From NCBI GenBank assembly GCA_030704615.1, contig CM060731.1, positions 21,080,001-21,144,000 of the forward strand: a stretch of 64,000 bases of DNA, written 5' to 3'. This document shows, piece after piece, positions 1 to 35,862 of this stretch; positions within the stretch are counted from its first letter, which is position 1, and each line of letters starts with the position of its first letter. The translations under genes were made by a program, and so were the position numbers. The notes beneath the pieces are model-generated. The model searched no databases. It saw nothing but the letters and a program-made list of their open reading frames with translations, and was not told where the DNA came from. Source of the stretch: Takakia lepidozioides (taxonomy: Eukaryota; Plantae; Bryophyta).

Positions 1-746
1 ATTCGATAGAGAAGTAGTCTTCGACAGTCAGCATGCTATTCCATCCAAAGAGGCAGCCATTGCCCAGCAGCCAACACACTAGATACGCTGTCTTCCGACC
101 CTGAATACAGGTGAAGGCGAGCTCAACACAACATCTGTTTTCAGGGCACAACTAACTTTCATTTCTTCTAAAGATTTCATGAAGGAAAAGCTACACGTGA
201 CCCAAAATAAATCCCTTGTGATAGGAGAAAGTGAACGGAGTTATTGCACATCAACATGACAAATGTCCAGATTGAGCACGTAGAAAAGGTAACGTTTCGA
301 CATTGAGACGTGGAAAACAGGAAATCGTTGGTGTCATACGAAAAGTGTAATTAATGTGTATTGTTACAGTTTCCTCATTGCCCAGGCGTTTGGGTAGCAG
401 GACAGGAAAGACGGAGGACAATGGGAACGGATGAGACTGAAAAGATTGAGCAAGCTTAAATTGGACAAGGAAACTCTTCAAATGAATAGATGTGATCACT
501 TTCGAAGTGTTTCCAGTCGTGGCAAATTTATAGAGAGATAACACTATGCACACTCTATGAAGTGTGAGAGCGAAAAAGGACTTCAACCTTCGACTATAGA
601 ATTCAAAGCCCAATGCTATACCAACTGAGCTACACATTCCGGCTCTTGAGAGAACTCCGAGCGCCTTGATTAACAAGGCATAGAGAGAAATCTACCTTGA
701 TGGGCTCCGTGCCCACGAACGCCACTGAATCCTTGGACTCCCCCAT
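1..746 (-). CDS. Equilibrative nucleoside transporter (ENT family), 5' part; runs off the window's left edge
   Basis: Exon 746-696 (MGESKDSVAFVGTEPIK) splices GT..AG to exon 100-1 (GRKTAYLVCWLLGNGCLFGWNSMLTVEDYFSIE), matching the plant ENT first-TM motif LG.G.L..WNSMLT..DY. Not in the ORF track; translated by hand. Confidence 0.85.
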
Positions 747-5549: not shown

Positions 5550-8500
5550 GTATCTAATCGACTTGAACATCATCATCCGGAGCTTCTTCGTCCTCATCAA
5601 GCTGCAAGTCTTCTTGCTCATCAGAGTCATTGTCATAAATGGCTTGGTCACCAAAAAGCACATCTGAATCATCTTCCACCTCGGTTTCAATGACCATGTC
5701 TTCATCTTCTTCTCCAACATCCGCATCTGATGGAGCCTCATCGTATAGGGTCCGGGATGCATTGTCCGGGGCGTCATCATTCTCTTGTACCCCCTCTATC
5801 TAACCTCGGCCAACACCAGCGTCATCATGACCAGTCTCTTCCTCCTCTGCATTTGCCTCGCCCCATGTAGATCCCCGACCATGATAGATACGTCTTCCTC
5901 TTGGCTGAGCATGCACAACCACCTTCCAATTTCATGATTCGGAGAAGAAAACTTGCTCCATATCTGAAAGCCATGAAAAAAGCTCATCGGAGGGACGATG
6001 AGTAGACTCGAGCCTATCTGTATTGACGCACATGAAACCACACTCGTCTTCTACCATTGTTGCGGATGGCCCCACAAGATGTGGCTGGAACCACCTTGCC
6101 TTGAAGATAAGAGGCTGGTGCCTTGTATACTGAAGTTGGAGTATGCTCTCAAGCTCTCCAAAGTAGTTGAGTGTGCTCATGGTAGGTCGTGTATCTCCCC
6201 TGCCCCACACGGAGTCTTGCCAATATGAGGCACACAAGCCAGAATCAAACGTTGTTTTGCGCTTCATGTCAAGAGCACGAATGCGGAAATGACGACCATG
6301 AACCCAAACCGCCGTGTATGAGGTCGCAAATTGAGAGGGGCCCCTTGCAATGTCTTGCACCAAATCTGAAACCACCTCACCTTTCGCAATGTTATCCTCT
6401 ACTTCAGTCCGAAGCCAATGGCAGAATGAACTTAGAGGCTGCAATTCCATGGGCAATTCTTGTGAAGGCACATTCCTACGCCGGCCCCTTGCTCGCGGAG
6501 CGCGTGTAGTCGCCCTTGCATGGTTCCGCCTCCACGCAACCATCTCCTCTGGTTGTTGCTGAACAAGGTTATTATATCTTGTCTCCCACTCATGTATGGA
6601 TGGGGTGTTCTTCAGTATGAACTCATGCGCTTGGTTAATCACCATGATGGGTAATTTTACCCTCTTTGAATTTTTGGGCAAAACGATGTCTTTGGTTCGT
6701 ATATCCTCATCTTCCTTCCACATCGGAGGGGCTTCCTTATCCACCCTTGCCAAGTACTCCATGCAGTAGAACATAGCCTCTTGCAATGTATACCCCTCCG
6801 CCATGCTACCCTCCAGGTGTGCCATTTGTGTTACATGTGCTTTCTTCATGTATCGCTCAAGGTAGTACATCCACCGAGAAGGAACGGGGCCGGCAATCGA
6901 AGCCTCTTCCACTAAGTGCACTACCAAGTGCACTTGGATGTCAAAGAAGGAGGGAGGAAGGTGCATCTCCAACATACACATGACCACCACCGCCGCCTCC
7001 TTCTTCATGCGTGGAAAGTCCGCTTCCTCCAGCTCTTTGGAGCAAATCCACCGGAACAATGCTCCCAATCTATAGACTGTCTCGCGAACCTCGGGAGTCA
7101 ATGTCTCACGTACTGCAATGGGCAAGATATCTTGCAATAGATTGTAGTAATCATGAGACTTCAAACCATGGACCCCGTCTTCATTGAACTTCATACGAAG
7201 GGATGACCCATAACCAGTTGGTGTTCGGACAGCTCCTATGGTGGCTGTCACTTTCTTGTATTCCTCCTTTGTCCATTGCCAAGGTGCGCGCCTATACTTC
7301 CACCGTACAACACCCTTTGGGTCCACACCATTTTCTTCGGCCCATAGATGGGGCATGCGACCCTGCTCCTCAAGTTCCTTTCTAACACCGAGAGAATCTC
7401 CTTTTGCAGCCACTCCCTTCTTTGTCGGCGTGCCATGAAGAACACGAAAAAGGAACGAGCAAACATTCTTCTCAATATGCATGGGATCTAGAAGATGACG
7501 AATCTTTAGGTCCTACATATATCCCCACCCACAAATTCTTACACGTCTATTTTGTCATGAAAGTGACAATGGAAATCATACAAAACATGCAATATCACAT
7601 GCATGCATAGCAATATTGATGGTGTTTTTGTGGAATATGTACCGCCCAATATTCGTAGAAGATTGAAAGCCGCTTCATGCCGGGCACCTCCACTTCACCG
7701 GACCCCTCCGGATGGGCCTCCTTCCATCGGTCTTCCCAAAAGTGCCCGGATGGTGTCACAGGTGGGGGTCGTAACTCCACTTTGCCATCAAACAAGTGTT
7801 TGTCTCTTCTTCTCCAATGATGGCTCATAGGAAGAAACTTGCGGTAGTTGGGATATACCATCTTGCGAAGATTGTTGGAGCTTTGTGCATCAAGTTCATC
7901 GCCACAATACAGGCATGCGTGGTACCCTTTAGTGCTCAACCCCGAGCAAACAGTAAGTCCTGTAGACATTCCGCCACATTAGGAAAGACAAAAAGTTTAC
8001 ATGTGCATCTACCCCACTACGGTGCAGAAGACTGTCGCCGCTACTTCAATCAATCCCAATCCTCATCAATATCCCTTGACAGGTAAATGTACGCGGGTTT
8101 CTCATAGGGAACATAATATACCTGGATAATCATGCATTGTCCAAAGCAAGATGCCTCTCATCTGAAAAGATTGTCCGGCCATAGGGTCAAGTGAAGCGTC
8201 CAATGCCGGAACCCCCCTCCATAACTCCTTCAGTTCATCAACTAGAGGTCGCAAGTACGTGTCCATGTCTTTCACTTGTTTTTTCTCTATGAGACATTCA
8301 CATCATTAATTATTTCAATGCTCCACCATGCTAATTATACTTCATAATGAATGACACATTTTACTACATGATTACGTCACTCATCAATCTTCCATCGGAA
8401 TTGCGCCAAAGAGAAGAAGATTAATGTAAAATCCAAAGTAATAATAAGCATGAAATGGAAACACTCACCCGGTACAATGGCAGCCAACATGATATGGCCT

Positions 8501-9530
8501 TTTTTTATTGAAAGATACGGAGGGATGTTGTAATTCACCATGGTCACCGGCCAAGTGGAATGACTACATGACTGGACAGAGAATGGGTTGACCCCATCCG
8601 AGGAGAAGCCGAGGCGGACATGTCGTGGGTCCTCCAAGAGAAAAGGCCACATCTCTTCAATATGCGTCCATGCTTGTGAATCTTGTGGCCCGCACACCTT
8701 TCCCGGGGGGCTCCGATGCGAGGCGTGCCATCCCATCACTTCTACCGATGAGGGGCTTCGGTACTGTGCCTGCAGTTGCGGGATGATTGGAAAGTAGTGC
8801 ATTTTCTGGCACCATCCCCATGTCGGCCCCATATCATAATCAGTGTCATTCATATCTCTAAGTAAAACCTTGCGTCTTGTAGCGGTTGCAAAAAGGTAGA
8901 ATGCAATATACAAGTGTATTGTGGCGCGGGTATACCTTGCGCGGGGCTTTCTTCCGTTGAACATCATCCCGATATCGGTGTTTGTTGCACTTTGGACACT
9001 TGGTGAGTTTCACATCCTCTCCGTAGTACAGGGTTTTATCACATGGACATGCATGAAAAATCTTATAGCCCATCCCCACAACATCCAAGGCTGCTCTTGC
9101 CTCTTTTCTTGATCGTAGCATTCTCGGCTTCAAATGTGGGGCAAAGATGTAGTCCGCAATAGTCCGCATTATGGCAGACATACCCACATTGCTTATGCCA
9201 AACCGGATTCGCAAATTCAGCAACAACAAGATGGTTGAAAGTCTACTCACTTTGGCCCCTTCGTATAAGGGAGTTTTGGTTTCTTTTTCCATGTCATTCA
9301 AAGAGTCTGTGACCTCATCTACCATCTGATGCATTAAGAGGTCCTCCATTGCTGCCACATCCTCATGCATAATTCCATTGTCATTGTTGTCCTCATCATC
9401 GGAGACCGCCATTTCAGACGGGGTTGGGTCCCTTTGATACGCACCCCCCTCCGAAGGAACAAAATCCCGGTTCATGACAAGATCATGAACTTCATGAATT
9501 AACGTCGTGGGGTTGTAGGCCGGAATCCTA
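5550..9530 (-). pseudogene. CACTA TnpD/Tnp2 transposase (multi-exon, disrupted)
   Basis: HACPCDKTLY..CPKC..RY; Transposase_21-like YFPIIPQL, RLGFSSDGVNPF, STWPV, LRPLVDELKELW, WTMHDYPG, GYHACLYC; DPMHIEKNV; DUF4218-like GLKSHDY, PPSFFDIQVHLVVHL, GPV..RWMY..ER; DUF4216-like YFGELESI..FKARWF; acidic tail; stops and frameshifts present. Confidence 0.95.
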
Positions 9531-9844
9531 AGATGCCAAAAACAACCAGGTCATTATCAGTTTCCATACATGGCGTTGTTCATTATCATACAAGATAAAA
9601 CCCAAAGTACATTATTATACACACGAGGGGATTACATACATTGCTTCACCACATGAAGGAGACACTATATAATTCAAAATACCCAAATTCACATATAACG
9701 TCCACCCAAACTCCCTTGAATATAGCATGAAAAATTGCATCCAAATACACATCAATGCCTATGTATATATATATACACGGTGGAGGAAGCCACCTCAATG
9801 TATAAAATGTTTTCCTACGTCCATCTACACATGATGAAAGTCGG

Positions 9845-11460
9845 CTAACGCCTAAAGTCATACTCTGCAAACAACTCCTCCCCAGCCCTAATAGTTCTCT
9901 TTGCACATGTCATCACAAAAGTGGTGATGTTAGGGTCCAATCTACTATCCCCGTCATGGCGCTCATCCCAAAACACGTTGGCGGTGTGGCCCGGTGGTAA
10001 GGTAACTGAATTGTTGATGAGCCCAGCCACGTTGCCGTACACATCGGGGTTTCCGTCACAATAAATATGGGCTTTGCGGCCCAAATTTCTCGCCCTTACA
10101 TCATTGTCGTTCACAACAAGGATGTAAGGATGGATCAAGGACCCAAGGCCGTGTGTCTACAATAATTGCCACTCCCGGTGGGTGTACCTCGGCCCAAAAT
10201 AGGGGAACAAATCCACAGAATCCTCTCCTCCCCCCAAAACTACATCCTCCATCAAAAAAAGTCCACGACCCATACTAGGGTCCATTGCCTCCATCACGCA
10301 ATACATGCGACCCCAAAAAAGAAAGGGCTCACCCTCAGGAATCGGAACTGGACAAGGCACAAGACATTGGTAGAAATGGGGTTGGACTCCCGTCGTGAAT
10401 AGCTCCCTAGCACCACGATGACGTATGGTGCCTTCATCAGGTCGGCGAAGGCGCGGACCAACCGTGAGAAACAACTTCGGTCCACCTCTCCTAGGGGGCG
10501 GCGCCCGTCTATCACTTCGGGGGCCCTTCTCCTTGAGTAGGAACCTAGTGATCCATCGGTCCCAGTCATACACAGTCCCCAAAGGTGGTGGGATCCATCC
10601 GGGTTCTGCCGGAGGACCCGGATACGGACTCGGTGGCAGCTGTGGTCTCGGCAATGGAGGGGAAGAGAAACGTAGGTTGGTATGAGGGATCTCGCGTGGA
10701 GGTAGTACTGGCCGAGATGGCCGGGATGACGATGGTGATGAGGAAAGAACATGTACAATAAGAGGAACGGACGATGCGGATGATGGTGATGATGGGGGTG
10801 CCGATGTTGAGGATGTCAAACTCGGACTCGGTGGCGGCTGTGGTCTCGGCAATGGAGGGGAAGGGACACGTAGCCGGTCGGTATGAGGGACCTCGGATGG
10901 CAATGGTGATGAGGAAATACCATCTACAATAGGAAGAACGGACGATGCGGATGATGGTGATGATGGGGGTGCCGATGTCGAGGATGACTAATGTGTGTGC
11001 GTAGGTGACAAGCGCCTAGCCCGGTGCCCAAAAATAGAAAAACACGCATCGTACCCCGCTACCTCACAAATTGCATCTACGTCATGTTGCGAGAAAAAAA
11101 TGTTCACATCCGGAACGGGGTGGGGCTCGTAAGAAGGAAGAAACCTGCATCGGTATGCCTCTTCAGCAAAAAAAATAGCGAGCTTGGACATCAAGATGGG
11201 GCTGCAAGATGCATGATATGAAATGCATCAATACTCAATTCACAAACGCGAGGTTTCATTAGATATAGTACTTTTAATTGAGGAGTACGTGAGAAGATAT
11301 ATGGACGACTTACCTTTGCTGCATCAGCAATCTCGTACTTGGCGTAATGTTTTTCCACAACATGGGGTCGCCGCATCATCGGGTGGGTCCTCCCAACCGG
11401 TAGTCGTGCCCAACACCAACTGCACCAACACTCAATCTTGGGGAGGCGGTCCCAGCGCGT
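9845..11460 (-). pseudogene. SET-domain (lysine methyltransferase-like) protein with N-terminal Cys/His domain and Pro/Ser-rich linker, inside the CACTA element
   Basis: ORFs 10988-11194, 10157-10903 and 9845-10138 are in frame, separated by TAG stops at 10990-10988 and 10159-10157. SET motifs GRGLF, YFG, GNVAGLINNS and TIRAGEELFAEY occur in canonical order. An upstream exon ECWCSWC..HVVEKH ends AAG|GTAAGT at 11314. Confidence 0.78.
10625..10990. repeat. Imperfect ~180-bp tandem duplication encoding the Pro/Ser linker
   Basis: The ggacgatgcggatgatggtgatgatgggggtgccgatg and tgtggtctcggcaatggaggggaag blocks each occur twice. Confidence 0.85.
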
Positions 11461-11973
11461 GCATGTAAGCAGCGTGCAGAGTTGTTCAAGAAAGTCATGC
11501 CCATGGCTTTTGAGAACCTTGCCATTGCACAACATCGTGATACGTTGAGGTATGCTACCATACGTGGTGGGGGTTATCGTCCTGGGGTTCGGAGATTCAA
11601 CCCTGGTGACTATGTCTATTTGCAGCAAACTGCTCCTACGACCTTGGATGTGACTGCAGGACGTGTTATTTTGAGGGTTCGAGAGGTGTTGCTTTCAAGA
11701 GTCCTGATCTTGGAGGGTCGGGATGGCATGATTTGGAAGGACCATGTGCGTAATTGCGCGCCATGTCACCTTCCAAATGTTGATGGAAGGGTTGACCCAA
11801 ACCTGGCAGTGGTACCTACAAGTTTGAGGTGCATGTTGTGTGGGTCTGCTAGAGGGGCAGCCACCATGCTGGTGTGTGATTGATGCTCTAGAGGTTGGCA
11901 TATGGGATGTTTGACTCCACCTCTTGAGATGGTTCCTGATTGGGATTGGTTATGTCCGCATTGCATTGGATAG
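11461..11973 (+). mobile_element. Ty3/gypsy pol 3' fragment: integrase C-terminus (GPY/F-like region) plus PHD finger
   Basis: FENLAIAQHRD..F.PGDYVYL..CAPCHLP matches 32930-33250; followed by CMLC..MLVCD*CSRGWHMGCLTPPL..VPDWDWLCPHC (C4HC3 PHD, 11830-11964) with one TGA at 11881. Confidence 0.9.
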
Positions 11974-12499
11974 TGGGAGTGGATACAACCATGGAAGACT
12001 AACAAGAAATGCAAGGCCAAGCCACTAGGAGACCTTGTCCTAAGTCCTTCAAACTGAAGGCAAAGCAGTTCTTGTAAGCCCTCAAGAACCGCCGTATACG
12101 TCGTCTCTCTCCTCCGGCGACTATAGGTCCAACATCAGGCTCCCAGTTGTCCTCCGTGACTGCAACCTTGAGTCCAGCAGGCTTAGAGGTAGGAGACGCG
12201 TCCCGTGGTTGCTATGCTGCAACCTCTTGAGCAGTGACCACTGCCTTCTCTGTCAGTGACAATGTCTCATCCTGCCCCATCATCCCATCCTTGAGGACCT
12301 CCTCAACCCGAGAAAAATCCCCAACCTGATCCATCACCGCCACCTTGGCTGCCAACTCCTTCTGAACCTCGAGCACCTCCCACGTGTGCCATGGATGCGG
12401 CCTGTACCTCGTGGTCCTCAACTGCTCGCCCCCAGTTGCTGCCTGTACCGTCTCGGTAGGCGGGGAGACCATGAAGGGAAGTGTACTCCGTACTCTGCG

Positions 12500-13969
12500 C
12501 TACTCAGCCATAGCCAAGCTGATAATCCAGGTCAAGCAATTGAGATCCATTGCTTGCCCCAACACCTGACAACGTGATGCCTCAGAAAGAGATGGCACCG
12601 CCGTGGTACCAGTGGTAAAACCCATCGCCTGCTCGCGCTCGTCAACATTGGGCTCCACTAATTGTTGCAATTGGCTATCCCACAAGAGGCCAGGTCCACC
12701 ATCCCGAAAAGCATGGGATCCTGGGAAGCTGAGCAGTGTAGGTAATGCTACTTGTGGTTGACCCACATTGTTGACCACTGCCAAAGGCAAACGGTCAGCG
12801 TGTCTCACACGTTGAGACTGCCTCCTTGTGTCCAAAATGCTATCCACTGTGAAGTGTGCTGGCCGCTGCACCCCATCAAATGCACGCTTGAGCAGTGCGG
12901 GTGGCATCAAGTTAGTCCACCATAGCCGTGGACGATGAGCCCGTGACCCCACTGCAGCTGCATCCAGCAACACTGCTGACCCAAGCCACGACCAGACTTG
13001 ATGCACACTGACCATCACCCTGGCCCGAGAATCACCCATCAGTGGCACATTCTCCAAGATGTATGCTAGAGATACAGCTTGATGAAGCTGCAAGTGGCGC
13101 AAAACCCGCACCATCTCCCAAAACAGACCCGTCCTCGAGTCTCGCAATCCATTGTCATGCCCAGCTGATGAATGCCCTTGGCAGGGCCAACCTGCCACTA
13201 CTCGATCAATGGAGCCAACCTGCTCCAAATCCTGTGCCCCCAGCAACGAAATGTCTGCTGACAAGGCTTGTTGGTATCCACGAACTGCAAACACTGGCAA
13301 CAAATCAGGGTACTGCTGTACCAACTGAGCAACATGGCGCAGTGAGACGCGTCGTGCAGTTTCATCCCTCTCCACATACAGGTAACGTCGAACTCGTACA
13401 CCTGCCTGCAGTACTGCAGCCAATCCAGTGCTGATCCCGCCAAACAAGTCCAGAAGGCATATGCCTTCATCCGGGCATTGCCACACAAGAGGTGTGGTGT
13501 CCAATGGCGACAACTGAGGTGGTCCTGGTGCAATCACCGCACTCTCCTCTTCTCCTGACGGTATGAAGGCCTCTACCCAGGCTTGTTGTACCCGTCCATC
13601 AGCAGCCTGCTGCAAATCCTTGCTTGTACCCCACAATGGAGTGTGAGCAACCATGGCAGGCAACTCCGCCGTACCATGCATGTCATCCTGCTCTGCTGAA
13701 GGTGGCACATCCTCTGCATGGGCATTGCCTTCCAGCAACTCTCCAGGCCAACTAATTGTAGCTGTAAAGGCGGCTAGTGTTGGCATCTTGCCCCGCTGGG
13801 CAGCCGCAGTACCCCCAATGAATGTCACAGGGAGCTGTGCATGACGACCATCCCCTGACTGCCATCCAGGCCTGTAGGATGCTGACTCCTCCCAAAAGTC
13901 CAGGGTGAAGCCTATGGGATATAACATTGTGCCACCAACGAGGACATCGTAAGAGACCGCATCTGTCAC
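12500..13969 (-). CDS. DNMT3-like C5 cytosine DNA methyltransferase domain within the retrotransposon pol (uninterrupted 489-aa stretch; domain ~13465-12510)
   Basis: Motif I LLDLFGGISTG, II YLYVE, IV AGWPCQGHS, VI YILENV, VIII DAAAVGSRAHRPRLWWTNL (DNMT3 has DAKEVSAAHRARYFWGNL), IX EREQAMGF, X RCQVLGQAMD; in frame with the upstream protease across one TGA. Confidence 0.93.
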   Translation of the reverse strand: MTDAVSYDVLVGGTMLYPIGFTLDFWEESASYRPGWQSGDGRHAQLPVTFIGGTAAAQRGKMPTLAAFTATISWPGELLEGNAHAEDVPPSAEQDDMHGTAELPAMVAHTPLWGTSKDLQQAADGRVQQAWVEAFIPSGEEESAVIAPGPPQLSPLDTTPLVWQCPDEGICLLDLFGGISTGLAAVLQAGVRVRRYLYVERDETARRVSLRHVAQLVQQYPDLLPVFAVRGYQQALSADISLLGAQDLEQVGSIDRVVAGWPCQGHSSAGHDNGLRDSRTGLFWEMVRVLRHLQLHQAVSLAYILENVPLMGDSRARVMVSVHQVWSWLGSAVLLDAAAVGSRAHRPRLWWTNLMPPALLKRAFDGVQRPAHFTVDSILDTRRQSQRVRHADRLPLAVVNNVGQPQVALPTLLSFPGSHAFRDGGPGLLWDSQLQQLVEPNVDEREQAMGFTTGTTAVPSLSEASRCQVLGQAMDLNCLTWIISLAMAE

Positions 13970-13981
13970 AATGGCCTTGGC

Positions 13982-14314
13982 TCACATCACTGAGTCATCC
14001 ATAGGATGATCCGGCTGCAGTCTAATGGCCAACTCACGTCTTGTCATGCCCCGAGCCTGCTCTGATCCTCCCAGAGATGTCTGTATCTGGAAAGGACAAG
14101 GCTCCATATCCGCCTCCATGAGGCCCAAACCTGCAATAGCAGCTCTGCCCAACATCAGTGGCTGAGCTCCCGAGTCCAACAAGACCCGCAGTGGCCGGTT
14201 CTTCTTGCCTGCGGGTCCACTCAAAGAGAAAATGTCATCCTGGTTGTCTAACAAGTCAACTCCAGGTGTCACCATGGCGCGCTCAAAGGCTGGCCTAGCT
14301 GGCACCTCCGTCAA
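13982..14314 (-). pseudogene. Retropepsin aspartic protease (copy 2)
   Basis: LRVLLDSGAQPLMLG; the TGA at 13984-13982 corresponds to Arg in the other copy (VMRAKAIV). Confidence 0.88.
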
Positions 14315-15119
14315 CCTGGCAGCTGCAGCTTGCCGAGGATTCCTCTGCCACTACACCTTCCAGTAACTCCGCAGAAGATGAAGTGACCTCCCCACTCTCA
14401 CAGAGTGTTGCTGCTAGTCTGAACACTGCAGCTGGTCTTACCCCCGGCGTCGCAATCATGGTTGCCGAAAACAGTGGGGCTCGACACAAAGAGGTGGCTG
14501 CCCCAAACAACACCGGGCTGCACTAGCCTTGGTAGCAGGTGTCAGTGATGCACGTGTAGCTCTCCCCAATGGCATAGTAACCTCCGCTCGGTAACAGTCG
14601 GGCGAGAACTAGGTGCCATGGATGGCGTCAACACTGTCTCCGCCAATGTGAATGACTGAGGAAGCCTCGCCTGATGGCTTGCCTCCCCACGCTGTGGATC
14701 CAACTCCACCTCTGCACCTCGTGGCTCAGGAACTCGTGCTGCTCCTCTCGAGTCACTGCGCACATACTCCCACAGCCACCTGCTCTAGTGGTAGTGCTGC
14801 TCCGCACATGAATCCCATGCCTCCCATATCTTCTCCCTCAGGAGCAGGCGGTGGACCATCCTGCTACTTGTTCCACTACTAGTGCTGGCTGTGGGAGATA
14901 TTGGTGCTGATGCAGCTACTGGTCGCGTTGTGCCTCGAGTAATGGAGACGTAGTCAGGTGACCAACACATCCTCCACTCTCAATCTCTGCTTCATGTCTC
15001 TCGCCTGAACTCGTGGTAATCGTCCATAGGCGGGCCTCCAAATGCTGGACAGTCCCCTTCCACGCCATGAATGGGGTGAACAGCTGTGGATTGCGCATCT
15101 GCTGCAGATCACACCAGCT

Positions 15120-16332
15120 GTACTTGCGTACTTTAATCCCAGCTTGCAACACTCCTGCAAGCCCAGTGCTCATGCCTCCAAACAGGTCTAGCAAACAAAT
15201 CCCTGGTCAGTGGTTTCCAGATAGGGCACTGTATCCAAAGGAGCTAACTGAGGAGGTTCAGGTGATGTCACTGAACTCCCCTCACTCACCAATGGATAGG
15301 CCTCCTGCCATGCTTGGTGCACACACTCGCCTACTACTTGATGCAAATTCCTAACTGTACCCCACAGTGGAATATGAACAGACACATGAGGAAGCAATCA
15401 GCCTTGTATGCCAATTGTTTGTCCTCATTAGGTGGTGGCCTATCATCTACATGGCTATTGCCCTCCAAGAGCTCACCACCCCAAGCCACCACCTGTGAGA
15501 ATGCAGCCAATGTGGGCATCATGTTCCTATGATCCACCGCTACATTTCCAATAAACCGCACTAGGAACAGTGCACGCCGACCATCCCCTGACTGCCATTC
15601 CGGCCTGTAGGATGTCGTTTCCTCCCAAAAGACCAAAGTAAAGCCCATCGGGTATAACACAGCCCCACCAACAAGTACATCATAAGACATCACGTCCGTA
15701 ACAATGGCTTTAGCTCTCATGACAGAGCCATCTGTAGGATGATCTGGCTGCAATCGAATGAAGAGCTCATGGTGTGTAATCCCTCGTGCCTTCTCTGAAC
15801 CGCCCAAAGATGTTTGAATTTGGAAAGGACAAGGCTCCAAATCCGCCTCTGTAAGGCCCAAGCCTGCAATTGCTGCTCTCCCCAACATCAATGGTTGTGC
15901 TCCCAAGTCCAACAAGACCCGCAGTGGCCTATACCTCCTCCCGGCCGGGCCACCCAACTGAAACACACCATCCTGATTGTCCACCAGGACTACCCCAGGA
16001 GTCACCATACTACGCTCAATGGCTGGTCTAGTTGACAACTCTTGCAACCTTGCAGCTGCCGCTTGCCATGGCGCAGCTGTGGCTGTCTTCACCCTTGAAT
16101 CCAGGGCATCCATGCACTGCACCTGATCCGTTATCCCCGCAGATAGTGCCGATGCATCACCACTCTCACAGAGTCTAGCTGCCAGTCTAAACACTGCAGC
16201 TGGCCGCATCCCCGGCATTGCAATTGTCGTGGCAGAAAATAATGGAGCTTGGCAAATTGTCGTAGCCGCCCCCAACAATGTATTGGCTGCACCTTGCTTT
16301 GCTGCACCACCCACTGGCATTTCCCGAGCCAC
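15120..16332 (-). pseudogene. Aspartic protease (copy 1) followed by a truncated DNMT start
   Basis: RVLLDLGAQPLMLG..YDVLVGG, then VC*LDLFGGMSTGLAGVLQAGIKVRKY, fused at ~15120 to a duplicated gag segment. Confidence 0.85.
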
Positions 16333-16869
16333 ACCAACTCTCCCAATGACACTCGTGGCTCTATTTCTGACACACTTGGGCGAGCGGGTGCCATCAATGG
16401 CATAGTTGGCACTGTCTCAGCCAATGTGAAAGACTGTGGAAGCCTTGTCTACCGACTTGCTTCCCCTCTTTGTGGATCAAAATCCCACCGCTCCTCTTGG
16501 CTCAGGAGCACGCGTTGCTGCTCGAGTGATAGCAGCTGCAGAGTCCACATGCAATGGTCCTGCAAGTGCGGCTCCACACATGAAGCCCATACCAATCTGG
16601 TCTTCCCTGGGCATAGGAGGTTGTGCAGGTGGGGCTTGAACCTCAAGCCTTAGAGCTGGCGCAACATGAGTAGTGGCCATGGCAGCAAGACGTTGCTCTA
16701 GCTGGGCAAGTCTATCCACCATGCTTGGTCATGACCTTGACCCTGACCCTGTGCTCCTTGATTTTGGTTACGTCCTCCACCCCGACCTCTGCCTCCTCTA
16801 CCTCTCTGGACTACATTGCCTCGTCCTTGGCCACCATTGTCCCCTTGGAACCGGCCTGGCCGTAGCTCA

Positions 16870-18106
16870 AGATGCAAGTCATAACAATGGGCCTCTTCAT
16901 GCCCATACTTGTCACAATGCCCACATTGGAGTTGTGTAGACTGTGCCTGTGCCGGCCCTTTGCCTCTCTCCGGGCAATCTCTCTTAACATGGGGTCCTCC
17001 ACAATCCCAACATGTTACACTCGACTGTTGTTGGCTTGAGAATGAAGGAAGTGACCTCTGTAATTGAGATCCTCTCGGCCCTTCCCTAGGCTTCGCCTGA
17101 GCCCCCTTGTTGCCTTGAGCACGTTGGGGTAGTGGTTGTTGTTGGCTAGGAGCCCCACTTCATTGTGTCTCCTGCCCAAACCCCACATGACCATGACTCT
17201 CGCTCCTCCACCATATTGAGTTCTATCCGCTCTGCCAGCAAAAACACGTTTGCTCAGGTAGGTTGGGCCACTTGTAGGAGAGTTGCATCTTGCATCCTTC
17301 TCCTCAGCTCCTTGTCCAATATCCCATACCAGAATTGGACTGCTTGAGCTTCCGTAACCCCTTGGGTTACATTTATCAATCGCCTCATGCGCATGTAAGC
17401 CTCCTTCAAACTCTCGGCAGGCTTTCGTTGAAACTCTTGCAAACTCCGCAATTTCTCCGTCCTTATCCCTTGGTAGTTTCTCCTTAACTCCTCGAAGAAC
17501 TCCACAACTGGGTTAAAGGCAGGCACGGGTGTTGGTGTTGCAACAGGAGCTTGGGTGGACTTCCCAGCTCTTGTTCCACTTGACGTCCACTGCTGCTTGC
17601 GGAAGCTGTCGGTGTAGCTGCCGGTGTCACCACTGCCCTTGTGCCTCTAGTGATGGAGACATAGTCAGGTGACCAACAATACCCCCGCCATTCCTCAATC
17701 TCCACCTCATCTCCCCGCCTAAACTCATGGTAGTCATCCATGGGCGGCCCCTTAAGGTACTGAAACAACCCTTTCCACGCCATAAAAGGCGTAAACAATT
17801 GTGGATTGCGCATCTGCTGCAAATCACACAAACTATCAAACTCCTATATGAAATCAACAAGCTGGTGCCCACAGCTCCAGAGTACCGACGTGGCCCCTTG
17901 GTAACTCCATACATTTCCTCTATCGTATCCCACAACAATGGCACGGAAATGGCTTGCATCCTCGGCGAGAATCCTCCTAACTCTGGGTCTGAACCTTCCT
18001 CAGAAGACACTGAAGGTGAAGGTGGCCTAAACCGCAGACCTCGTCTTATATACCCACTAGTATCGCTGGTGCTCGTACCGGCACTCTCCTCAGCAACTGG
18101 TGGCAC
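16870..18106 (-). pseudogene. Gag with two zinc knuckles
   Basis: Capsid-like FFEELRRNYQG..LQEFQRKPAESLKEAYMR; hand translation of 17015-16880 gives CWDCGGPHVKRDC and CGHCDKYGHEEAHC (CX2CX4HX4C). Confidence 0.85.
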
Positions 18107-18156
18107 CTCCGTGATGAAAACTCACAACCACACATGTTGTAAACCTGTTTCTAACC

Positions 18157-19231
18157 CCTGGGGGGTGCACCCCAGCCAACCTGTACTAGCCACGTGCGTG
18201 CACAGGAGGGGGTATTTTTAACCCCCCCATGTACAACATTATACATACATAGGGGGGTAAAGCAACACCTTGAATATAAGTCTACAGCAAGGGATTAGCA
18301 TGATTAGGAGGGTAGTGTAGTGGTAAGGGTCACCATTGCCACGACTCTCATCGCAGGTTCAAATCTCACGGTGTCTTGAATTTTTCGAAAACTTTGAAAA
18401 TATGTATATCACAATGCAGATTTGAGCCCAAGACCACTGGCACACCATGACCAATTCCATACCACTAGGCTGGTCCATGGTTCTTGAAACAATTATAATG
18501 TTAAATAGTAATATACAATAAAGACAATATTTTGTTTTGTATCATTGTTGAGATCTCCCCAACCGCGGGCCCCAGCCCTGGTGTTTGGTACCGTTGGAAA
18601 GCCCTCAATGAGGAGGGGTGCACTGGCTTGGTCTCATAATTTTGGAACTTGCGGTGTGGGAGATATGAAATTTCAAGTACTTTTGGTCGTTGGAAACTCG
18701 CAAAAAATAGCAAAATGGGCTTTCTTGCAACAATTACTGGCCATTTTTATCTTTGTACACGGGGACATAAATTGTAAATAATTGGGTTTGTTTTTCAATA
18801 TGGCATGAACACAATATTGTTTGTAGGGTCCTTGAGATCTCCCACACCACAAGGCCTCTAGCCACGATTTTGGTACCGTTGGAAAGCCCTCAATGAGTAG
18901 GGATGCACCGACTTGGTTTCATAAAATTTGGACCTACATAGTAGTATAGGCCGCGGTCTGTTTTTAAATGAATAAACTTGATATAATAATAATAATAAAT
19001 ACATATATATATTTGAGGGTATTTTTTAATGATTCAAAAAAGAAATATACATACAGCAGGGGTACTTTTTTAAAATTACAAATTTCTATATATTTACAGG
19101 AGGGGATTTTATAATCTTCAAAGTATGTACAGAGGGGTATAAATGATCCAAGGACCCATATACAGGGGGATTTTTTATTAGGCGGCGAACGCACGTGATA
19201 CAGACATTTTATAAAGAGTGCACCCCCCAGG
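18157..19231. mobile_element. Non-autonomous hAT-type TIR element (MITE)
   Basis: Perfect 14-bp TIR CCTGGGGGGTGCAC/GTGCACCCCCCAGG; 8-bp TSD ttctaacc/ctctaacc (7/8); AT-rich, non-coding; internal ~110-bp direct repeat (18545-18660, 18830-18940). Confidence 0.9.
18310..18480. other. Two convergent degenerate tRNA-like (A/B-box) sequences inside the MITE
   Basis: Plus strand: TAGTGTAGTGG...GGTTCAAATCT (18313-18366). Minus strand: GCCTAGTGG...GGCTCAAATCT (18470-18418). No convincing cloverleaf. Confidence 0.45.
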
Positions 19232-19789
19232 CTCTAACCCCTTTCCACAAGGTAACCGGGTAGAGAACCTGTTGCGGCTTATGGCTTAGACTACTAGGTT
19301 CGTAACATAAACCTGCACTTGCATCCACCGCAAGCACTCATATGGTCTGCTGGTCATCAACCCAGCCTCAGCATAAGAGAAACAATGGTGGTCTGACTGG
19401 TCATCACCCCAGCCTCACCACCGACAGCATGCTCTAGGATTGGCCGGTGATCAAATCTGGACCAACCTCCTATGAAAACAAGCGCCCACACAAAACTGAC
19501 ATGGCGCACAGTCAAGCATGCAGGTGTGGGGGGGATCCAAACACAAGAAAATCAAGACAGTAACTCTTCCACACCAAAAAAAACACTCCACAATGTCGCT
19601 CCTACAAAGACACTCTAGCCCAAACCCGGACTGACTCTTGCCTCTACCTACGGAAAGGTTTTGGCCTACATAGAGGGTGAAGACTACGAGGAAGAGAGAC
19701 TAAAGCATTCCTATCCCAGATGCTCTCATCCCACTAGTCTCCCCCTATCTCTAAACGCTCTTGCTCATGACCAACAGACATAACCTACC

Positions 19790-27520: not shown

Positions 27521-29148
27521 CTTTCCGGGGTTGCATTGTAAGTGCTGCTGCTTTTGTTGGGAATATTGGTGCAAAGGATTAAGGCTCGGCATAGCTACGG
27601 ATCTCGACTGGAGGAGAGCAGGTCACTGGGAACCAAGAGCTGTTATGGTGCATTTGTAAACACAATTGAAATCCTGGGAAATATAGGTCACGCTGCCAGG
27701 GAGTCTGTGGTGAGAACTACATGAACACGTTTGGAACCTGTTAAGATAACGTGGGAACAACGTTTAATGGCGAGAACGTTTTGGTGTTAAAAAAAAAAAA
27801 AAAACCCTTTTTGATCTAATTTCAATGATTTAGAGCCTAATTGGTCATATCTTTGTCAAATGGACTCCGTTTGACTCAGTTTTTGGGGGGATAGCTGTAG
27901 AAAGGGGAAATCTACCTATCTGGTTTTAGTTTTTTGGACTCTGCTAAAAATCTATGGAATTTTTTGAGTGTGAGTGTGCTATGAAAGATCCACAATTCTG
28001 CTTCTAGAACCTGTTGTGGTCTACATGAGAGACAAATCTGGGGATGTCCTCCTTGTATGGCTGGGGGAAATGAGGACGTAATTGAAGGGCAGGTCTCTTC
28101 TCTTAGCCTGTGCACACAAGGGGACAAGACTTATGTTTCTCAAGGAACTCAGACTGATTTGAGTGGAGAGCAGTTGGACGAGTTGATTGCATACTGAAAG
28201 TCAGACATTAGCAATAGACAACAAACTGCTGTAGTTGGCGTTGAGGGCCTCAATATCGCTTTGGACAGTCAGAACTTTGTTGGAGCCAGCAGTTCTGCAG
28301 TTGTAAATGAAATACCAAAGTGGGTGAAAGCTAGGCTTGGAACACAGCCAAAGTCAGCCTCGGGCACCAAGGTGTTCAGCCACAAGGCCGTGGTGTACTG
28401 TAGTAGAGGAGCAGGAGCTACACAAGTTTGTGCAATCAGACATGGTTGCAGCCGGATACGCTCTACATGAGGCAACCACGAGTGGGGGTTCATTAGCAAT
28501 GAAAAGTTTGTGCTGCTTGAAGGAGATGCAGTCATTCGCAATGAGGACACCCGCAACCGTCTCAAAGCTTTCGAGTTGAGAGACTGTCAGACCCTACCTT
28601 TATTTTCTTTAGTGTTCAGTGAGCGGGAGATAGGGGAGTATTGCTTTGTCTTCACCTGGCAGAAAGAGGAGGAGGGTTGGTTAGAGCGAGCTACTGTAGC
28701 TTGGGACAAGGTTAGTGGCAGGTTTCTGGACATAGATATACCTCCTACACCTTACCATTATGCAGAGCGAGGCACTTTGAGAGAAGTCTGGCAGTTGATA
28801 GCATAGATCTGGATTAGATCTTGCTTGGTCGGGCCTCTATTCTTCCCCTCCCTCTTGTTACTATTTCCATTACTTTGTACTTGTAGTTGCCAAAGCCTCT
28901 CTTGGTGGAGGCCAGTCAATCCGGGGTTTTGGGTTGGGATATTCTGCAGGATCAGCACTGCAGATTGATTTTGGTGTGGGGGTGTTGATGTTTGATTTCT
29001 TGTGTTTGGATCCCCCCCAACACCTGCATGCTTGACTGTGCGCCATGTTGGTTTTGTGTGGGCGCTTGCTTTCATAGGGATTAGGCCGGATTTGATCACC
29101 GGTCAATCCTAGAGTATATTGTCGGTGGTGAGGCTGGAGTGATGACCA

Positions 29149-30030
29149 ATGTGGAGAAGGATGAGATAGCTCGGCATATTTCTATGCGCCACATCGCCTT
29201 GCTCACACACCGGTATCCTGAGTTGTTGCCTCTCTCAGCAATTCAAGGGTATCAAAAGGCCTTGCCAGCAGACATTACCTTGCTGGGGGCGGATGATTTG
29301 GACCGGCATGGTGCCATTGACTAGGTGATAGCTGGATGGCCTTGCCAAGGACACTCTCCCGCAGGTCATGGGAACGGCTTGCATGATGCTCGATCGCATT
29401 TGTTTTGGGAGATGTTGAGAGTGTTGTGTGACTTGCAGACGAGGCAAGTGCATCCTCTAGCCTATATCTTGGAGAATGTTCCTCTTATGGGGGACTCTCG
29501 GGCCAGGGTTATGGCCAGTGTGCATCAGGTGCGGTCTTGGATTGGATCGGCGGTGCTATTGGATGCAACAGCGGTGGGATCACGAGCGCATCGACCTCGA
29601 TTGTGGTGGACCAATCTTGCACCACCAGAGCTGCTCAAGAGAGCATACGATTCCATTCAACGGCCACCCAATCTCACAGTTGAGGGCATTTTGGACCAAG
29701 GGAGGCAACCACAGAGGGTGCGACATGATGACCGTCCACCTCTAGCAGTGGTAAATCGAGTGGGGCAGCCACGTGCGGCCTTGCCTACGCTCATGAGCTT
29801 TCCCTCGTCTCATGCTTTTCGAGACAATGGTCCTGGGTTGATTTGGGACAGTGTGCTACAGCAATTGGTGGAGTCCAATGCAGATGAGCGAGAACGGGCA
29901 ATGGGATATGCACTACAGCTATGCCAGCTCTGTCAGAGGCATCACGCCGACATGTGTTGGATCAAGCAATGGATCTAAATTGCTTGACATGGGTCATTGG
30001 CTTGTGCATGGCTGAGCAACGGAGGTTGCA
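29149..30030 (+). pseudogene. DNMT3-like methyltransferase domain, copy lacking motif I
   Basis: IAGWPCQGHS, YILENV, GSRAHRPRLWWTNL, ERERAMG, RHVLDQAMD; stop at 29322 and frameshift near 29910. Confidence 0.9.
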
Positions 30031-30459
30031 GACAGTGGTGGCTACTTTTGCACTCCCATTTGGTATTGTATCCCCTCCGCCAATCGGGACGGTTGAGGCA
30101 GTGAGTGGGGGCGAACACAGGATCATGGGGTGCAAACACCCATGGCAGATGTGGGATGAGATGCAGAAAGAGAGAGTCCTTGGATCTCTCAAGTAGCAAT
30201 ATGAGGAGTGGGGAGAGCCATACACTGAGGATCAGTTGGAGGCCAAGGTGGCCAATGTTTTTGAAGAGGTTGAGAATGTTTCTTCCCCACAGGATGTTCT
30301 CAAGGTGGTGGAGGCTACGCCACAGTCAGATTGGGCGGACAAGGCCCAAGAGGTTGCTATCTAGCACCCAAAGGATTCGTCTCCTACCCCCAAGCCTGAT
30401 GTACCCAAGGTTGCAGTCACTGAGGACAATTGGGAACCAGATGTTGGACCTACAGTCAC

Positions 30460-31850
30460 CGGAGGAGAGAGACGGAGGATCCAGTGATTTCTAAGGGCTT
30501 ATAGAAATTGCTTTGCCTTCGGTTTGAAGGATTTCGGGAGTTTGAAGGGTCAGGAGATTCGTATTGATTTGGCAAGTGACACGCCAATCTTTCGAAGGCC
30601 CTACCGGTATAGTGACATGGAGAGGTCATTGATCCAGTCACGGACTATGGAGTTGTTCGAAGCTGGATTGGTGGAGTTGTCAGGCGGGGAGTATGCCTCG
30701 GCAACGGTGATGCCAGCTAAGAAAGATATCTATGGCAATTGGACAGAAAGAAGGATGTGTGAGAACTATCGTCCTGTGAAACATCAGACTAAGTCCGATA
30801 GATATGCCATGCCAACTCCAAAGGAAATCTTTGATGCCATTGGGCATGCGAAGGTGTTTAGCACATTGGACTTGCGATCCGGTTACCACCAATTGCCAAT
30901 TAAAGAGGTTGACAAGCAAAAGACGACATTCTGGGGGATTGACCAACATGGGAAGGATTGCTTGTACCAATGGTGCTTCCTACCGTTTGGGTTGAAGAAT
31001 GCTCCTATAGAGTTTCAGAGGGTTATGGATAGGATTCTCGCGGGGCTAGACTTTGCCCGATGTTACATTGATGACATCATCGTCTTTAGTGTTACGGTTG
31101 AGGAGCATGAGAAACACCTTCAGGTGGTGTTTGAGCGCTTGAGAGCGCATGGGTTGAAATTGCACCCTGGGAAGTGCAAGTTCTTCCACAACCAGATTGA
31201 GTATCTGGGCCACATGATATACCCTGGAGGATTGGGTGTTCAAAAGACGAAGGTGGAGGCCATTGCACGCATTCCACGCCCCATAGATGTTAGCAGAGTT
31301 CGTGCTTTCATGGGGTTGGCAAACTACTATGGACGGTTTGTCAAGGGATTTAGCAGCATTGCAAAGGCTCTTACTAAGTTGACCAAGGTGGGTCAGGAGT
31401 GGTAGTGGGAGGAGGAGCAGGATGAAGCCTTTGAGGAACTCAAGGCTCGATTGACTTCTGCACCTATTCTGAGGCAGCCTATTCGGGGGCGGCCTTTCCA
31501 GCTATATACGGATTGGAGTATGCTAGGGATTGAAGCAGTGCTCACACAAATGGATGATGAGGGAAGAGAGTTTGTAGTGGCATATGCTAGCCGCTCAAAC
31601 AATGATGCCGAGGCAAAGTATAGTTCCTATGAAGGGGAGTGTCTAGCTGCGGTATGGGCAGTGGCACATTTCAGATGCTACCTCTATGGCAATCTCTTCA
31701 CCCTTGTCACGGATCACCAACCATTGAAGTGGTTGATGGGACAAGCTTACAGGGAAGCTTGCACGATGGGCACTTATGCTTCAAGAATACGACTTTCAGG
31801 TGGTGCATCGAGCCGGAATTGTCAATCGGGATGCAGATGGATTGAGTCGT
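30460..31850 (+). pseudogene. Ty3/gypsy reverse transcriptase and RNase H
   Basis: RRPYRYS, FSTLDLRSGYHQL, LPFGLKNAP, YIDD (31064-31075), YLGH; RNase H LYTDWS, YEGECLAAVWAV, VTDHQPL. Confidence 0.96.
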
Positions 31851-32149
31851 AATCCATGCACGAGCGAGCATGATGATACTGGAGCTCGGTGGCATGGTGA
31901 GACGGATGAGGAGATGGTGCCAGGATGACATGCATCTGCCTTTTTGTGCATCATAGCAATGGGAGCTCAAGCTGGTCTATCCCATAGCATTGGTCATGTA
32001 GATGGTGTGCATGACGATCCGGAGATCAGTGAGGAGCTTGGTGGTGCTAAGGATGTACATGAAGATGCAGCAGTGTTGGCCTACCTTCGTATTGGAGAGA
32101 CAGCAGCCATTGTGACTGCTAAGGAGAGAGATTGGATCCTACAACGAGC

Positions 32150-34430: not shown

Positions 34431-34506
34431 TATGTACAAATCTCCAGAGATTGTACCTTATATTGAGTGATGCTTGGGAATATGTATTTGTATTTTGACA
34501 TTATAT

Positions 34507-35500: not shown

Positions 35501-35862
35501 CACAATACGGGTACTATGTAGTATGCAATAGCTTGGACTGCTCCGAGGGGTTCACATGGGACGAAGAGTGAAACCCTTGACGAACGACGAGGGGAGCCAC
35601 AGCGAAACGTGCAGGATCCGACGAGAACCTAGCAACGAAAAACTAGGTGTAGGACAGCCTCCCCAAGGGGGGATTGTTTTTTTGTAAGAGAGGGAGGAAG
35701 CCTTGCAAGTATTTTCTTAGAGAGAGCAGATTTGAAGAGCGAAGATCTCCAGGACAGGAGATTGTGAGTTGGTGGCAGTCTGTGCTTGCAGAGCGGGAGT
35801 AGTCAGTGCGTACATCGACATATAGGGTTTGCAATTGTTTTGAGGGAGGTGGAGGGACGAGG

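Follow-up and report, generated by a model that had tools for sequence, protein, structure and literature searches.

Decayed Ty3/gypsy copies in the moss Takakia lepidozioides carry a DNMT3-like methyltransferase domain behind the protease

Described elements related in content or layout

Several retrotransposons are known to carry a cytosine-C5 methyltransferase. The closest to the family described here is KnitGypsy-Dnmt3 of the alga Klebsormidium nitens, which, like the present family, is a Ty3/gypsy element with an unrearranged DNMT3-like domain (DNMT) that retains its key residues and is under purifying selection (PMC5890265). Its repeats are arranged in a DIRS-like order, A-coding-B-A-B, according to the legend of Figure 4c in that paper, and this order is also found in two relatives of the present family, L011 and L030. 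KnitGypsy-Dnmt3 gave no methylation in yeast, a result deemed inconclusive by its authors, and SymbioDIRS-Dnmt3 of Symbiodinium was reported to methylate CG in yeast (PMC5890265). The latter and SymbioLINE-Dnmt of the same organism are also retrotransposon-borne C5-methyltransferases, but they belong to other element classes, i.e., tyrosine-recombinase elements and LINEs, respectively (PMC5890265). EpiLTRs of Cymbomonas and Euglena also bear a C5-methyltransferase, but theirs is a DNMT4-related enzyme with a DAM domain and a chromodomain, unlike the one considered here (bioRxiv 10.64898/2026.05.21.726589).

Whereas KnitGypsy-Dnmt3 is algal, the present family resides in land plants (mosses and liverworts). 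Furthermore, PMC5890265 describes the DNMT as part of the Pol ORF, together with reverse transcriptase (RT) and RNase H (RH), whereas here it is found at the end of ORF1, before a stop of the UAG-CARYYA type. The K. nitens protein GAQ93235.1 also terminates just past the DNMT, as ORF1 does here, and the published Pol-ORF description may be incomplete for some K. nitens copies, to judge from this one protein. A predicted self-priming site, target duplications around A-coding-B forms, and a PHD finger in the integrase (IN), which are seen in the present family or its relatives, are not mentioned in the accessible text of PMC5890265. No published DNMT-bearing Ty3 element of land plants was found in the literature, in which subscription papers and supplementary trees (PMC5890265, PMC12344493) were thinly covered and may show copies. 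Likewise, the literature covered contained no report of readthrough in a DNMT-bearing Ty3 element nor, except for PMC5890265, of split repeats in Gypsy elements. Two later papers use the term streptophytes loosely. A DNMT-bearing Ty3 element has already been published for an alga, and it is broken land-plant copies that are described here.

Among the plant Ty3 clades of REXdb, neither a PHD finger nor a methyltransferase is mentioned for any clade in the main text of PMC6317226. Membership of two clades was considered and rejected. Tcn1 elements of mosses and club mosses are predicted to be self-primed (Neumann et al., 2019, PMC6317226), as are the present relatives, but these chromoviruses possess a chromodomain where the present family has a PHD finger. 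Phygy elements of mosses are 7.7-10 kb long, produce 4-bp duplications and lack a chromodomain, but their NCGN duplication and tRNA-Trp primer site are absent in the relatives (PMC6317226).

Copies in the window and their methyltransferase

The window, i.e., the whole 64-kb stretch of T. lepidozioides DNA that was analyzed, contains four broken pieces of the Ty3/gypsy family: copies A, B, and C and fragment D. In a tree of host genes, the window falls with bryophytes, which supports the predicted land-plant host. All of its copies are dead, and neither an intact copy nor an LTR pair was found within it. The interval 12030-19776 of the original prediction is chimeric and joins two copies with a mutual identity of only 68%. 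It contains a 5' leader or LTR-like segment at 19398-19776(-), of which 19398-19670 is 81% identical to 28882-29148. The segment did not match the repeats of related loci and may be a leader rather than an LTR; LTR ends of the window's own subfamily were sought, and none could be set. Copy A comprises a frameshifted gag with two CCHC-type knuckles at 16818-17913(-), whose match to Retrotrans_gag (E 0.0018) is under the Pfam cut-off, a protease (PR) region at 15412-16416(-), detected by tblastn with the Marchantia ORF1 protein P0182, and the first 32 codons of the DNMT, including motif I, at 15108-15203(-), where the junction into copy B follows. Copy B continues with a protease and deleted gag remnants at 13469-15114(-), with one stop at 13984-13982, and a complete DNMT3-like C5-methyltransferase domain of 322 aa at 12503-13468(-), which has no internal stop and matches PF00145 and DNMT3A in the PDB. 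The linker behind it, 12215-12502(-), opens with a stop that is private to copy B, as nearly all family contigs compared differ from the window there. Then follow an in-frame stop that ends ORF1, TAG CAA CCA, at 12206-12214(-), a candidate type I readthrough signal, and the start of RT at 12038-12205(-), which is truncated at 12038, where it has loose ends. At 12205-12217, four sequencing runs contained no variant with a share of at least 2%.

On the other strand, fragment D, 11404-11978(+), consists of an integrase C-terminus with 81% identity to 32900-33251 and a PHD finger (PF00628, E 1.3e-9, when one stop is read as X). In copy C, a leader or LTR-like segment at 28882-29148(+) is fused straight onto a DNMT without motif I at 29149-~30020(+), which contains one stop and one frameshift (PF00145, E 2.5e-10). 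The counterpart of the copy B stop, TAG CAC CCA, lies at 30362-30370(+), and RT, RNase H, and integrase (RVT_1, RT_RNaseH, Integrase_H2C2, and rve) at 30371-33251(+), with stops and frameshifts and truncated before the PHD finger. Three DNMT pieces had been predicted and are indeed present, i.e., a complete one at 13468-12503(-), a start only at 15203-15108(-), and the one at 29149-~30020(+). All domains of the proposed consensus, gag(2 knuckles)-PR-DNMT-RT-RH-IN-PHD, are present in pieces as well, but the PHD finger is found only in fragment D, and a single PR-DNMT-RT frame is absent. The copies carry no self-methylation footprint, their CpG observed/expected ratios of 0.41-0.52 being level with the window-wide average of 0.51; their CpG/CHG ratios were uninformative.

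The methyltransferase of copy B lies in a stop-to-stop ORF of 493 aa, 12500-13981(-), which matched the PF00145 profile with an E-value of 4.6e-12. The C5-methyltransferase motifs claimed between protease and RT could be located at 13453 (LDLFGG), 13378, 13195 (AGWPCQ), 13060 (ILENV), 12943 (RAHRPR), 12640, and 12562. The proposed DNMT3-like identity was supported by a structure model (pLDDT 77), for which Foldseek returned DNMT3A/B/C as the nearest structures and DNMT3 proteins in all listed rows to rank 50. Profile scores against the PDB were consistent with this, with 77 bits for DNMT3A, 42 for DRM, 31 for M.HaeIII, and 20 for DNMT2. In an alignment of 172 DNMT rows, the catalytic Cys was kept in 166, the Glu of ENV in 169, and both Arg residues of RxR in 166. 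The dN/dS ratio of the DNMT was 0.09-0.17 in seven between-lineage pairs with unsaturated dS, pairs with saturated dS having been left out, and resembled that of the protease. Thus, the DNMT is under purifying selection between lineages. The enzyme would probably be active in functional copies.

The conserved stop and the wider family

The DNMT had been predicted to sit in pol, within a single open frame PR-DNMT-RT. Instead, it closes ORF1 (gag-PR-DNMT) before a conserved in-frame stop, behind which RT-RH-IN-PHD constitutes a second ORF in the same frame. In the window, the TAG is present in both copies that reach RT (12214-12212 and 30362-30364). A stop is located 34-45 codons upstream of the RT anchor in 51 of the 53 loci that have a DNMT and an RT start, as compared with 8 stops in 1484 control codons. 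The 52 metagenome loci among these 53 represent 44 distinct linkers and about six lineages; L013 and L078, with linkers of >700 nt, were included in the stop count and left out of the linker comparison. Of 41 gag/PR-DNMT proteins that lack RT, 38 terminate 71-182 residues past the last DNMT motif, and seven from Marchantia do so 91 residues past it. The end of ORF1 is, hence, almost certainly the position of the DNMT in this family. In deeper members (P0412, P0535, P0540, P0175, and P0155), a single ORF covers DNMT and RT, and several predicted gene models of Marchantia, Sphagnum, Riccia, and Closterium also join the two.

The context of the stop corresponds to the type I readthrough signal of TMV, UAG CAR YYA, which works in plants without downstream structure (PMC13517186). 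It is exact in window copy B and L007 (TAG CAA CCA), L051 and L054 (TAG CAG TTA), and L074 and L082 (TAG CAA TCA), and matches at five of six bases in copy C and in the largest lineage, which has mostly TAR CAA CCC. Twelve loci with TAA CAA CCC and four with a second stop right after read as decay. In L051, uninterrupted ORFs of 1369 and 1047 codons in the same frame are parted by one stop, and ORF2 ends in a PHD finger, with no chromodomain match. MuLV, SIRE1, and Tca2 also have two same-frame ORFs split by one stop, but there it lies between gag/protease or pol/env and not after protease and DNMT (PMC2194720). Judged by its context and conservation, the stop is probably, with good confidence, read through at a low rate. 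Since the DNMT closes the Gag-PR frame upstream of the stop, it would be produced at Gag rather than Pol levels.

The order gag-PR-DNMT-RT-RH-IN recurs across 80 metagenome loci, in which the DNMT is present between protease and RT; the family architecture that had been proposed is, therefore, not a one-off fusion. The order of the other domains, gag-PR-RT-RH-IN with a DDE integrase, is that of Ty3/gypsy elements. Relatives were found in Marchantia, Calypogeia, Riccia, and Sphagnum with identities of 60-73%, and in Closterium, Klebsormidium, and the chlorophyte Hariotina with about 36-40%. The element counts are weighted heavily towards a single peat-moss-like lineage. A search of viral contigs yielded one weak locus (34% identity), and one of genome contigs two loci, i.e., a partial match at 34% and L082, which is a complete element located on a 9.3-kb contig of a cyanobacterial MAG and was read as eukaryotic contamination. 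No bacterial donor of the DNMT was found among the genome contigs searched. In the ESM Atlas, clusters with PF00145 from Streptophyta and from phages tied at a score of 0.96, which does not discriminate between them.

In the relatives, split repeats replace the LTR pair. L011 and L030, with 65% DNMT identity, show the A-coding-B-A-B layout, and the B|A junction is also present in L005, L051, L074, and L082. Other forms are A-coding-B with 4-bp target duplications. Elements end in TG...CA; where both ends were available, the 4-bp duplication was exact in four of six elements, mismatched in one, and absent in one, and left flanks were GGTA, TTCA, TACA, TGTT, CACA, and ATCA. The primer site is not tRNA-like; in nine of ten copies, 12-16 of its 16 bases can pair with the left repeat of the same element, from which we infer that the relatives self-prime. 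Neither this repeat layout nor a self-priming site was found for the window's own subfamily.

Proposed mechanism, alternatives, and significance

The reading that we consider fairly probable is that the window holds decayed copies of a bryophyte Ty3/gypsy element of the order gag-PR-DNMT / leaky UAG / RT-RH-IN-PHD. ORF1 would be translated at coat-protein level, and the conserved UAG would occasionally be read through to yield RT-RNase H-integrase-PHD. Gag-PR-DNMT would be packaged into the particle, where the protease would free the DNMT, which would then methylate the element's own new cDNA. Reverse transcription would be self-primed from the left repeat, and integration would use cDNA circles opened at the internal B|A junction; the form A-B-A-coding-B, expected under such a circle model, was present in none of the loci. 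The family would share its ancestry in old green-lineage elements with KnitGypsy-Dnmt3.

Parts of this reading have alternatives. ORF2 might be made by reinitiation, splicing, or from a separate transcript, with the stop merely parting two genes. Reinitiation would be possible in the largest lineage and in L074, because an ATG directly follows CAA CCC in the former and a Met is found at ORF2 codon 14 in the latter; moreover, some gene models join DNMT to RT, and the gag-UGA-pol junction of Tca2 gave no readthrough in yeast (PMC2194720), which shows that ribosomes do not necessarily pass an in-frame stop. However, the first Met of ORF2 in L051 is at codon 117, none directly follows the stop in window copy B, the frame is preserved over linkers of five lengths (348, 390, 462, 468, and 471 nt), with CAR-YY retained where the adjoining protein sequence diverges, which makes this alternative unlikely. 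An alternative in which the DNMT has no function and is just carried along, or is a fusion peculiar to the window, would fit the broken state of all window copies and the dN/dS of 0.36-0.58 for all domains in within-lineage pairs. It is already largely refuted by the conserved catalytic residues, the protease-like dN/dS between lineages, and the existence of hundreds of relatives, with 523 representatives at E<=1e-30, and is extremely improbable. As to the target of the enzyme, Gag-PR-DNMT might instead methylate or bind host chromatin, the insertion site, or the repeat of the parent element, e.g., timing or damping its expression; insertion-site and damping roles are among those listed in PMC5890265. 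The placement in ORF1 would yield much more enzyme than one cDNA requires, and the family couples the DNMT with a PHD finger, but ORF1 itself has no chromatin-reading domain, as the PHD finger belongs to the integrase. Fusion to Gag-PR would be expected to bring a domain into the particle alongside RNA and cDNA. We consider such a non-cDNA target possible but doubtful, and the element's own cDNA as the main substrate slightly better than an even chance.

The land-plant elements might also have acquired the enzyme independently of the Klebsormidium elements, from a host DNMT3 or a phage-type enzyme. A FastTree DNMT tree was built from 165 of 224 full-domain proteins, retained after dereplication, seven window or locus rows, and three phage rows. 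With these phage enzymes as the only outgroups, K. nitens P0513 is on a separate basal branch outside the bryophyte-plus-Closterium clade, and phage C5-methyltransferases reach 25% identity and 68 bits (tblastn). Neither host DNMT3 nor DRM is in the DNMT tree, and the RT tree contains neither the K. nitens RT nor DNMT-less RTs as outgroups. However, all 172 element DNMTs group against the three phage enzymes (SH 100). Kinship to the Klebsormidium elements, as originally predicted, is indicated by GAQ93235.1, a gag-PR-DNMT protein with 36% identity over 341 aa, i.e., the whole domain, as against about 20% to DNMT3A in the structure alignment. The position after the protease and at the ORF end is shared as well, as is the unusual repeat layout. 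Plant host DNMT3s carry DUF3444 (PMC6453930), which a domain search did not find in the window elements and their relatives. Independent capture is, thus, quite improbable. The KnitGypsy-like repeat layout and the low DNMT dN/dS between lineages suggest that the family is an old one of the green lineage and not a recent capture, and an origin shared with KnitGypsy-Dnmt3 is likely; of the two options in the original prediction, that of a surviving old lineage is favored. More tentatively, these elements may represent an ancient green-lineage Ty3 superfamily that plant element databases leave unclassified and that is still alive in mosses and Marchantia, with an active DNMT3-like enzyme made at Gag level via a leaky stop, self-priming, and insertion of pre-methylated circles that the DDE integrase would cut at a palindromic LTR-internal junction.

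Since 2018, it has been an open question why a transposon retains an enzyme that silences it, and attempts to demonstrate activity of the algal Ty3 enzyme have not succeeded. A land plant now offers a way to test this, because Marchantia polymorpha, a genetic model with methylation mutants, has long gag-PR-DNMT frames, annotated as hypothetical genes (e.g., Mp4g09160, Mp8g17980, and MpVg00370). Such genes can make DNMTs seem more numerous in bryophyte annotations than they are. The permuted ends hint at a way of integrating that is unusual among Ty3 elements and may account for LTR-pair finders overlooking most copies, whilst the placement in ORF1 predicts that the DNMT would far exceed RT and integrase in amount.

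Methyltransferase domain and its setting

The ORF at 12500-13981 (-), 493 codons from stop to stop, matches PF00145 (E 4.6e-12), and its last 322 codons, 13468-12503 (-), contain the complete C5-methyltransferase motif series without an internal stop, as originally predicted. Motif numbers within 13468-12503 (-) follow the C5-methyltransferase scheme. Among solved structures, DNMT3A is the top sequence match of this domain (DNMT), followed by DNMT3B/C and DRM, and a profile of 23 relatives scores DNMT3A at 77 bits, DRM at 42, M.HaeIII at 31, and DNMT2 at 20. An AlphaFold model (mean pLDDT 77; below 50 in the target-recognition region) retrieved DNMT3 chains only among the matches listed to rank 50, with a TM of ~0.65 and 18-22% identity. 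Because phage C5-methyltransferases also match the domain, at 25% identity, the term DNMT3-like denotes resemblance, descent from DNMT3 being unproven.

The domain belongs to a series of four broken Ty3/gypsy pieces. In copy A (17913-15108, -), a two-knuckle gag and the protease (PR) are followed by the first 32 codons of the DNMT, where the sequence passes into copy B (15114-12038, -); the two copies are 68% identical. Copy B retains gag remnants, the protease, a complete DNMT, its linker, and the beginning of RT. In copy C (29149-33251, +), motif I is missing from the DNMT, behind which come RT, RNase H, and integrase; fragment D (11404-11978, +) comprises an integrase end and a PHD finger. 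No LTR pair was found within the 64-kb window. CpG depletion of the copies equals the window average. Run X1, a public data set that apparently stems from this organism, has 41,415 contig pieces that align to 11900-18200 at 80% likeness, a figure that is not a copy number; the element region is a many-variant repeat. The ORF directly after copy C, 33443-34255 (+), resembles the endonuclease part at the C-terminus of non-LTR elements; a Pfam search of it gave no match.

The window further contains genes for a DEAD-box helicase, a SAUR protein, a PPR protein, and a kinase. The helicase shares 83-86% identity with its orthologues in mosses, liverworts, and Diphasiastrum and 78-82% with those of seed plants; a tree of 19 rows places it in one clade together with proteins from two mosses and three liverworts and one further protein (SH-aLRT 96). 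This agrees with the land-plant host originally proposed, a bryophyte being most likely. A ~355-nt repeat recurs at 39436-40164, 52579-52940, and 56359-56457, with two copies in tandem in or beside the helicase gene, a repeat with a coiled-coil-like ORF occurs twice (1537-2652 and 34506-35501; 83-91% identical), and a tRNA-Gln(TTG) gene is located at 566-639 (-). Upstream of, and on the same strand as, CACTA ORFs at 5932-9550 (-) (Transposase_21, DUF4218), a small SET-domain-like ORF at 9845-10156 (-) (PF00856, E 7.8e-4, 20.3 bits, under the cut-off of 22.4) may encode a transposon-borne histone methyltransferase.

The stop between methyltransferase and reverse transcriptase

The original prediction placed the DNMT in pol, within one open frame from protease to RT. 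The gene order stands, recurring across related loci, but the frame does not: an in-frame TAG separates linker and RT in both window copies that reach RT, and the DNMT ends ORF1 (gag-PR-DNMT). In 51 of the 53 contig loci, nearly all metagenomic, that have a DNMT and an RT start, an in-frame stop lies between the two, 34-45 codons ahead of the RT anchor; L015 (linker deleted) and L078 (insertion) are the exceptions. Among control codons, 8 of 1484 are stops. Many of these loci represent one peat-moss-like lineage (52 loci yield 44 distinct linkers). Retention of frame and stop context across about six lineages with differing linker lengths is more telling than the locus count. Locus L051 exemplifies the layout, with two same-frame ORFs of 1369 and 1047 codons divided by a single stop, the first encoding protease and DNMT and the second RT, RNase H, integrase, and PHD. 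Over 12205-12217, which spans the copy B stop and its context, no variant had a share of at least 2% in four runs drawn from two samples at most; a second stop, which in copy B follows the DNMT directly, is private to this copy.

Among gag/PR-DNMT proteins without RT, 38 of 41 end 71-182 residues past the last DNMT motif, and Klebsormidium nitens GAQ93235.1 terminates right behind the DNMT. Counting against the placement in ORF1, DNMT and RT share a single ORF in some of the deeper members and in some gene models. The stop contexts are TAG CAG TTA, TAG CAA TCA, TAG CAA CCA, TAG CAA CCC, and TAG TAG CCA; the TMV-type readthrough signal is given as UAG CAR YYA (PMC13517186). Against readthrough count the ATG that follows the stop context in the largest lineage and the in-frame stop of Tca2, which shows that readthrough is not obligatory (PMC2194720).

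Selection and relatives

Between lineages, dN/dS of the DNMT is 0.09-0.17 (seven pairs with unsaturated dS), as compared with 0.09-0.30 for the protease and 0.04 for RT (one pair); within a decayed lineage, it is 0.36-0.58 for all domains. The catalytic Cys is retained in 166 of 172 rows, the Glu of ENV in 169, and the two Arg of RxR in 166 each; the residue before the catalytic Cys is Glu instead of Pro in 71.

Among ~8,000 candidates scored per search, the DNMT had 147 relatives close to it in length and 61 that were longer, and a profile search gave 523 representatives at E<=1e-30. Relatives occur in Marchantia polymorpha, M. paleacea, Calypogeia fissa, Riccia sorocarpa, and five Sphagnum species, mostly at 60-73% identity, and in Closterium at ~40%; cluster look-ups added the chlorophyte Hariotina reticulata and K. 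nitens GAQ93235.1. They show two layouts. In the DNMT tree, the layout with PR-DNMT ahead of RT makes up one clade (47 rows, SH 93), to which bryophyte and Closterium sequences belong, and the layout with DNMT placed between RNase H and integrase another (121 rows, SH 92), which includes Hariotina; K. nitens has a branch of its own with 3 rows. The RT tree parts the same layouts (17 vs. 51 rows, SH 100), 8 of the 17 rows being low-identity extra matches from loci; both trees were built without host DNMT3 and without DNMT-less RTs. Together with Marchantia, Calypogeia, and Sphagnum sequences, the window DNMT belongs to a clade of 16 rows (SH 100), in which Marchantia and Sphagnum group together and Calypogeia apart (SH 96), suggesting either that the lineages are old and ran in parallel or that transfer took place between bryophytes.

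The RT-RH-DNMT-IN-PHD proteins (e.g., P0158, P0162, and P0164; 46 have the full layout) are a large sister group with a related DNMT, the chlorophyte Hariotina included. Protein P0176, with P0264 and P0266 alongside, combines PHD and PCIF1_WW with the DNMT of the window family (cluster members reach 2311-4799 aa), possibly representing an element with two methyltransferase-type domains. Full or partial elements in bacterial MAG records (L082 and P0019; a cyanobacterium and an Obscuribacterales bin) most likely reflect eukaryotic contamination of the bins.

Element ends and proposed role

In relatives, the peat-moss-like family begins with a 339-nt repeat A (repeats A and B are distinct from copies A and B) and carries a 115-nt repeat B behind a G-rich tract. 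L011 and L030 end in B-A-B, L005 in B-A at a contig edge, and L029, L033, L034, L035, L052, L055, L061, L062, and others at B. The A-coding-B-A-B layout of L011 and L030 is that reported for KnitGypsy-Dnmt3 of K. nitens (PMC5890265). Of six elements with both ends, four have an exact 4-bp target duplication, one has a duplication with a single mismatch, and one has none. The B|A junction, also present in L051, L074, and L082, reads CA, two bases, TG. From this arrangement we infer that the true LTR would be B+A and that integrase would cut circles with one or two LTRs at the B|A junction inside the LTR. Alternatively, A-coding-B forms could arise via recombination between two B copies; the form A-B-A-coding-B, expected if circles are cut, was not found among the loci examined for repeat layout. 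In L028 (5200-5314) and L031 (5210-5324), the place of the left A repeat is taken by a B repeat in inverted orientation together with its G-rich tract, which may have arisen by self-insertion.

The sequence that follows A can pair with a site in A located shortly downstream of a TATA-like box (12-16 of 16 positions complementary, in 9 of 10 copies), the pattern that self-priming would require; REXdb reports self-priming for Tcn1 (PMC6317226). Membership of Phygy and Tcn1 was rejected on duplication motif, primer, and chromodomain.

In print, DNMT-bearing Ty3 elements are known from K. nitens, whose enzyme was negative in yeast methylation tests that were called inconclusive (PMC5890265). Our literature searches found no report of such elements in land plants; supplementary trees may show land-plant copies. 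Beyond the observed anatomy and selection, the most likely scenario is that functional copies would make plentiful Gag-PR-DNMT, that a small amount of readthrough product would bring RT and integrase, and that the protease would release the DNMT inside the particle, where it would methylate the cDNA.
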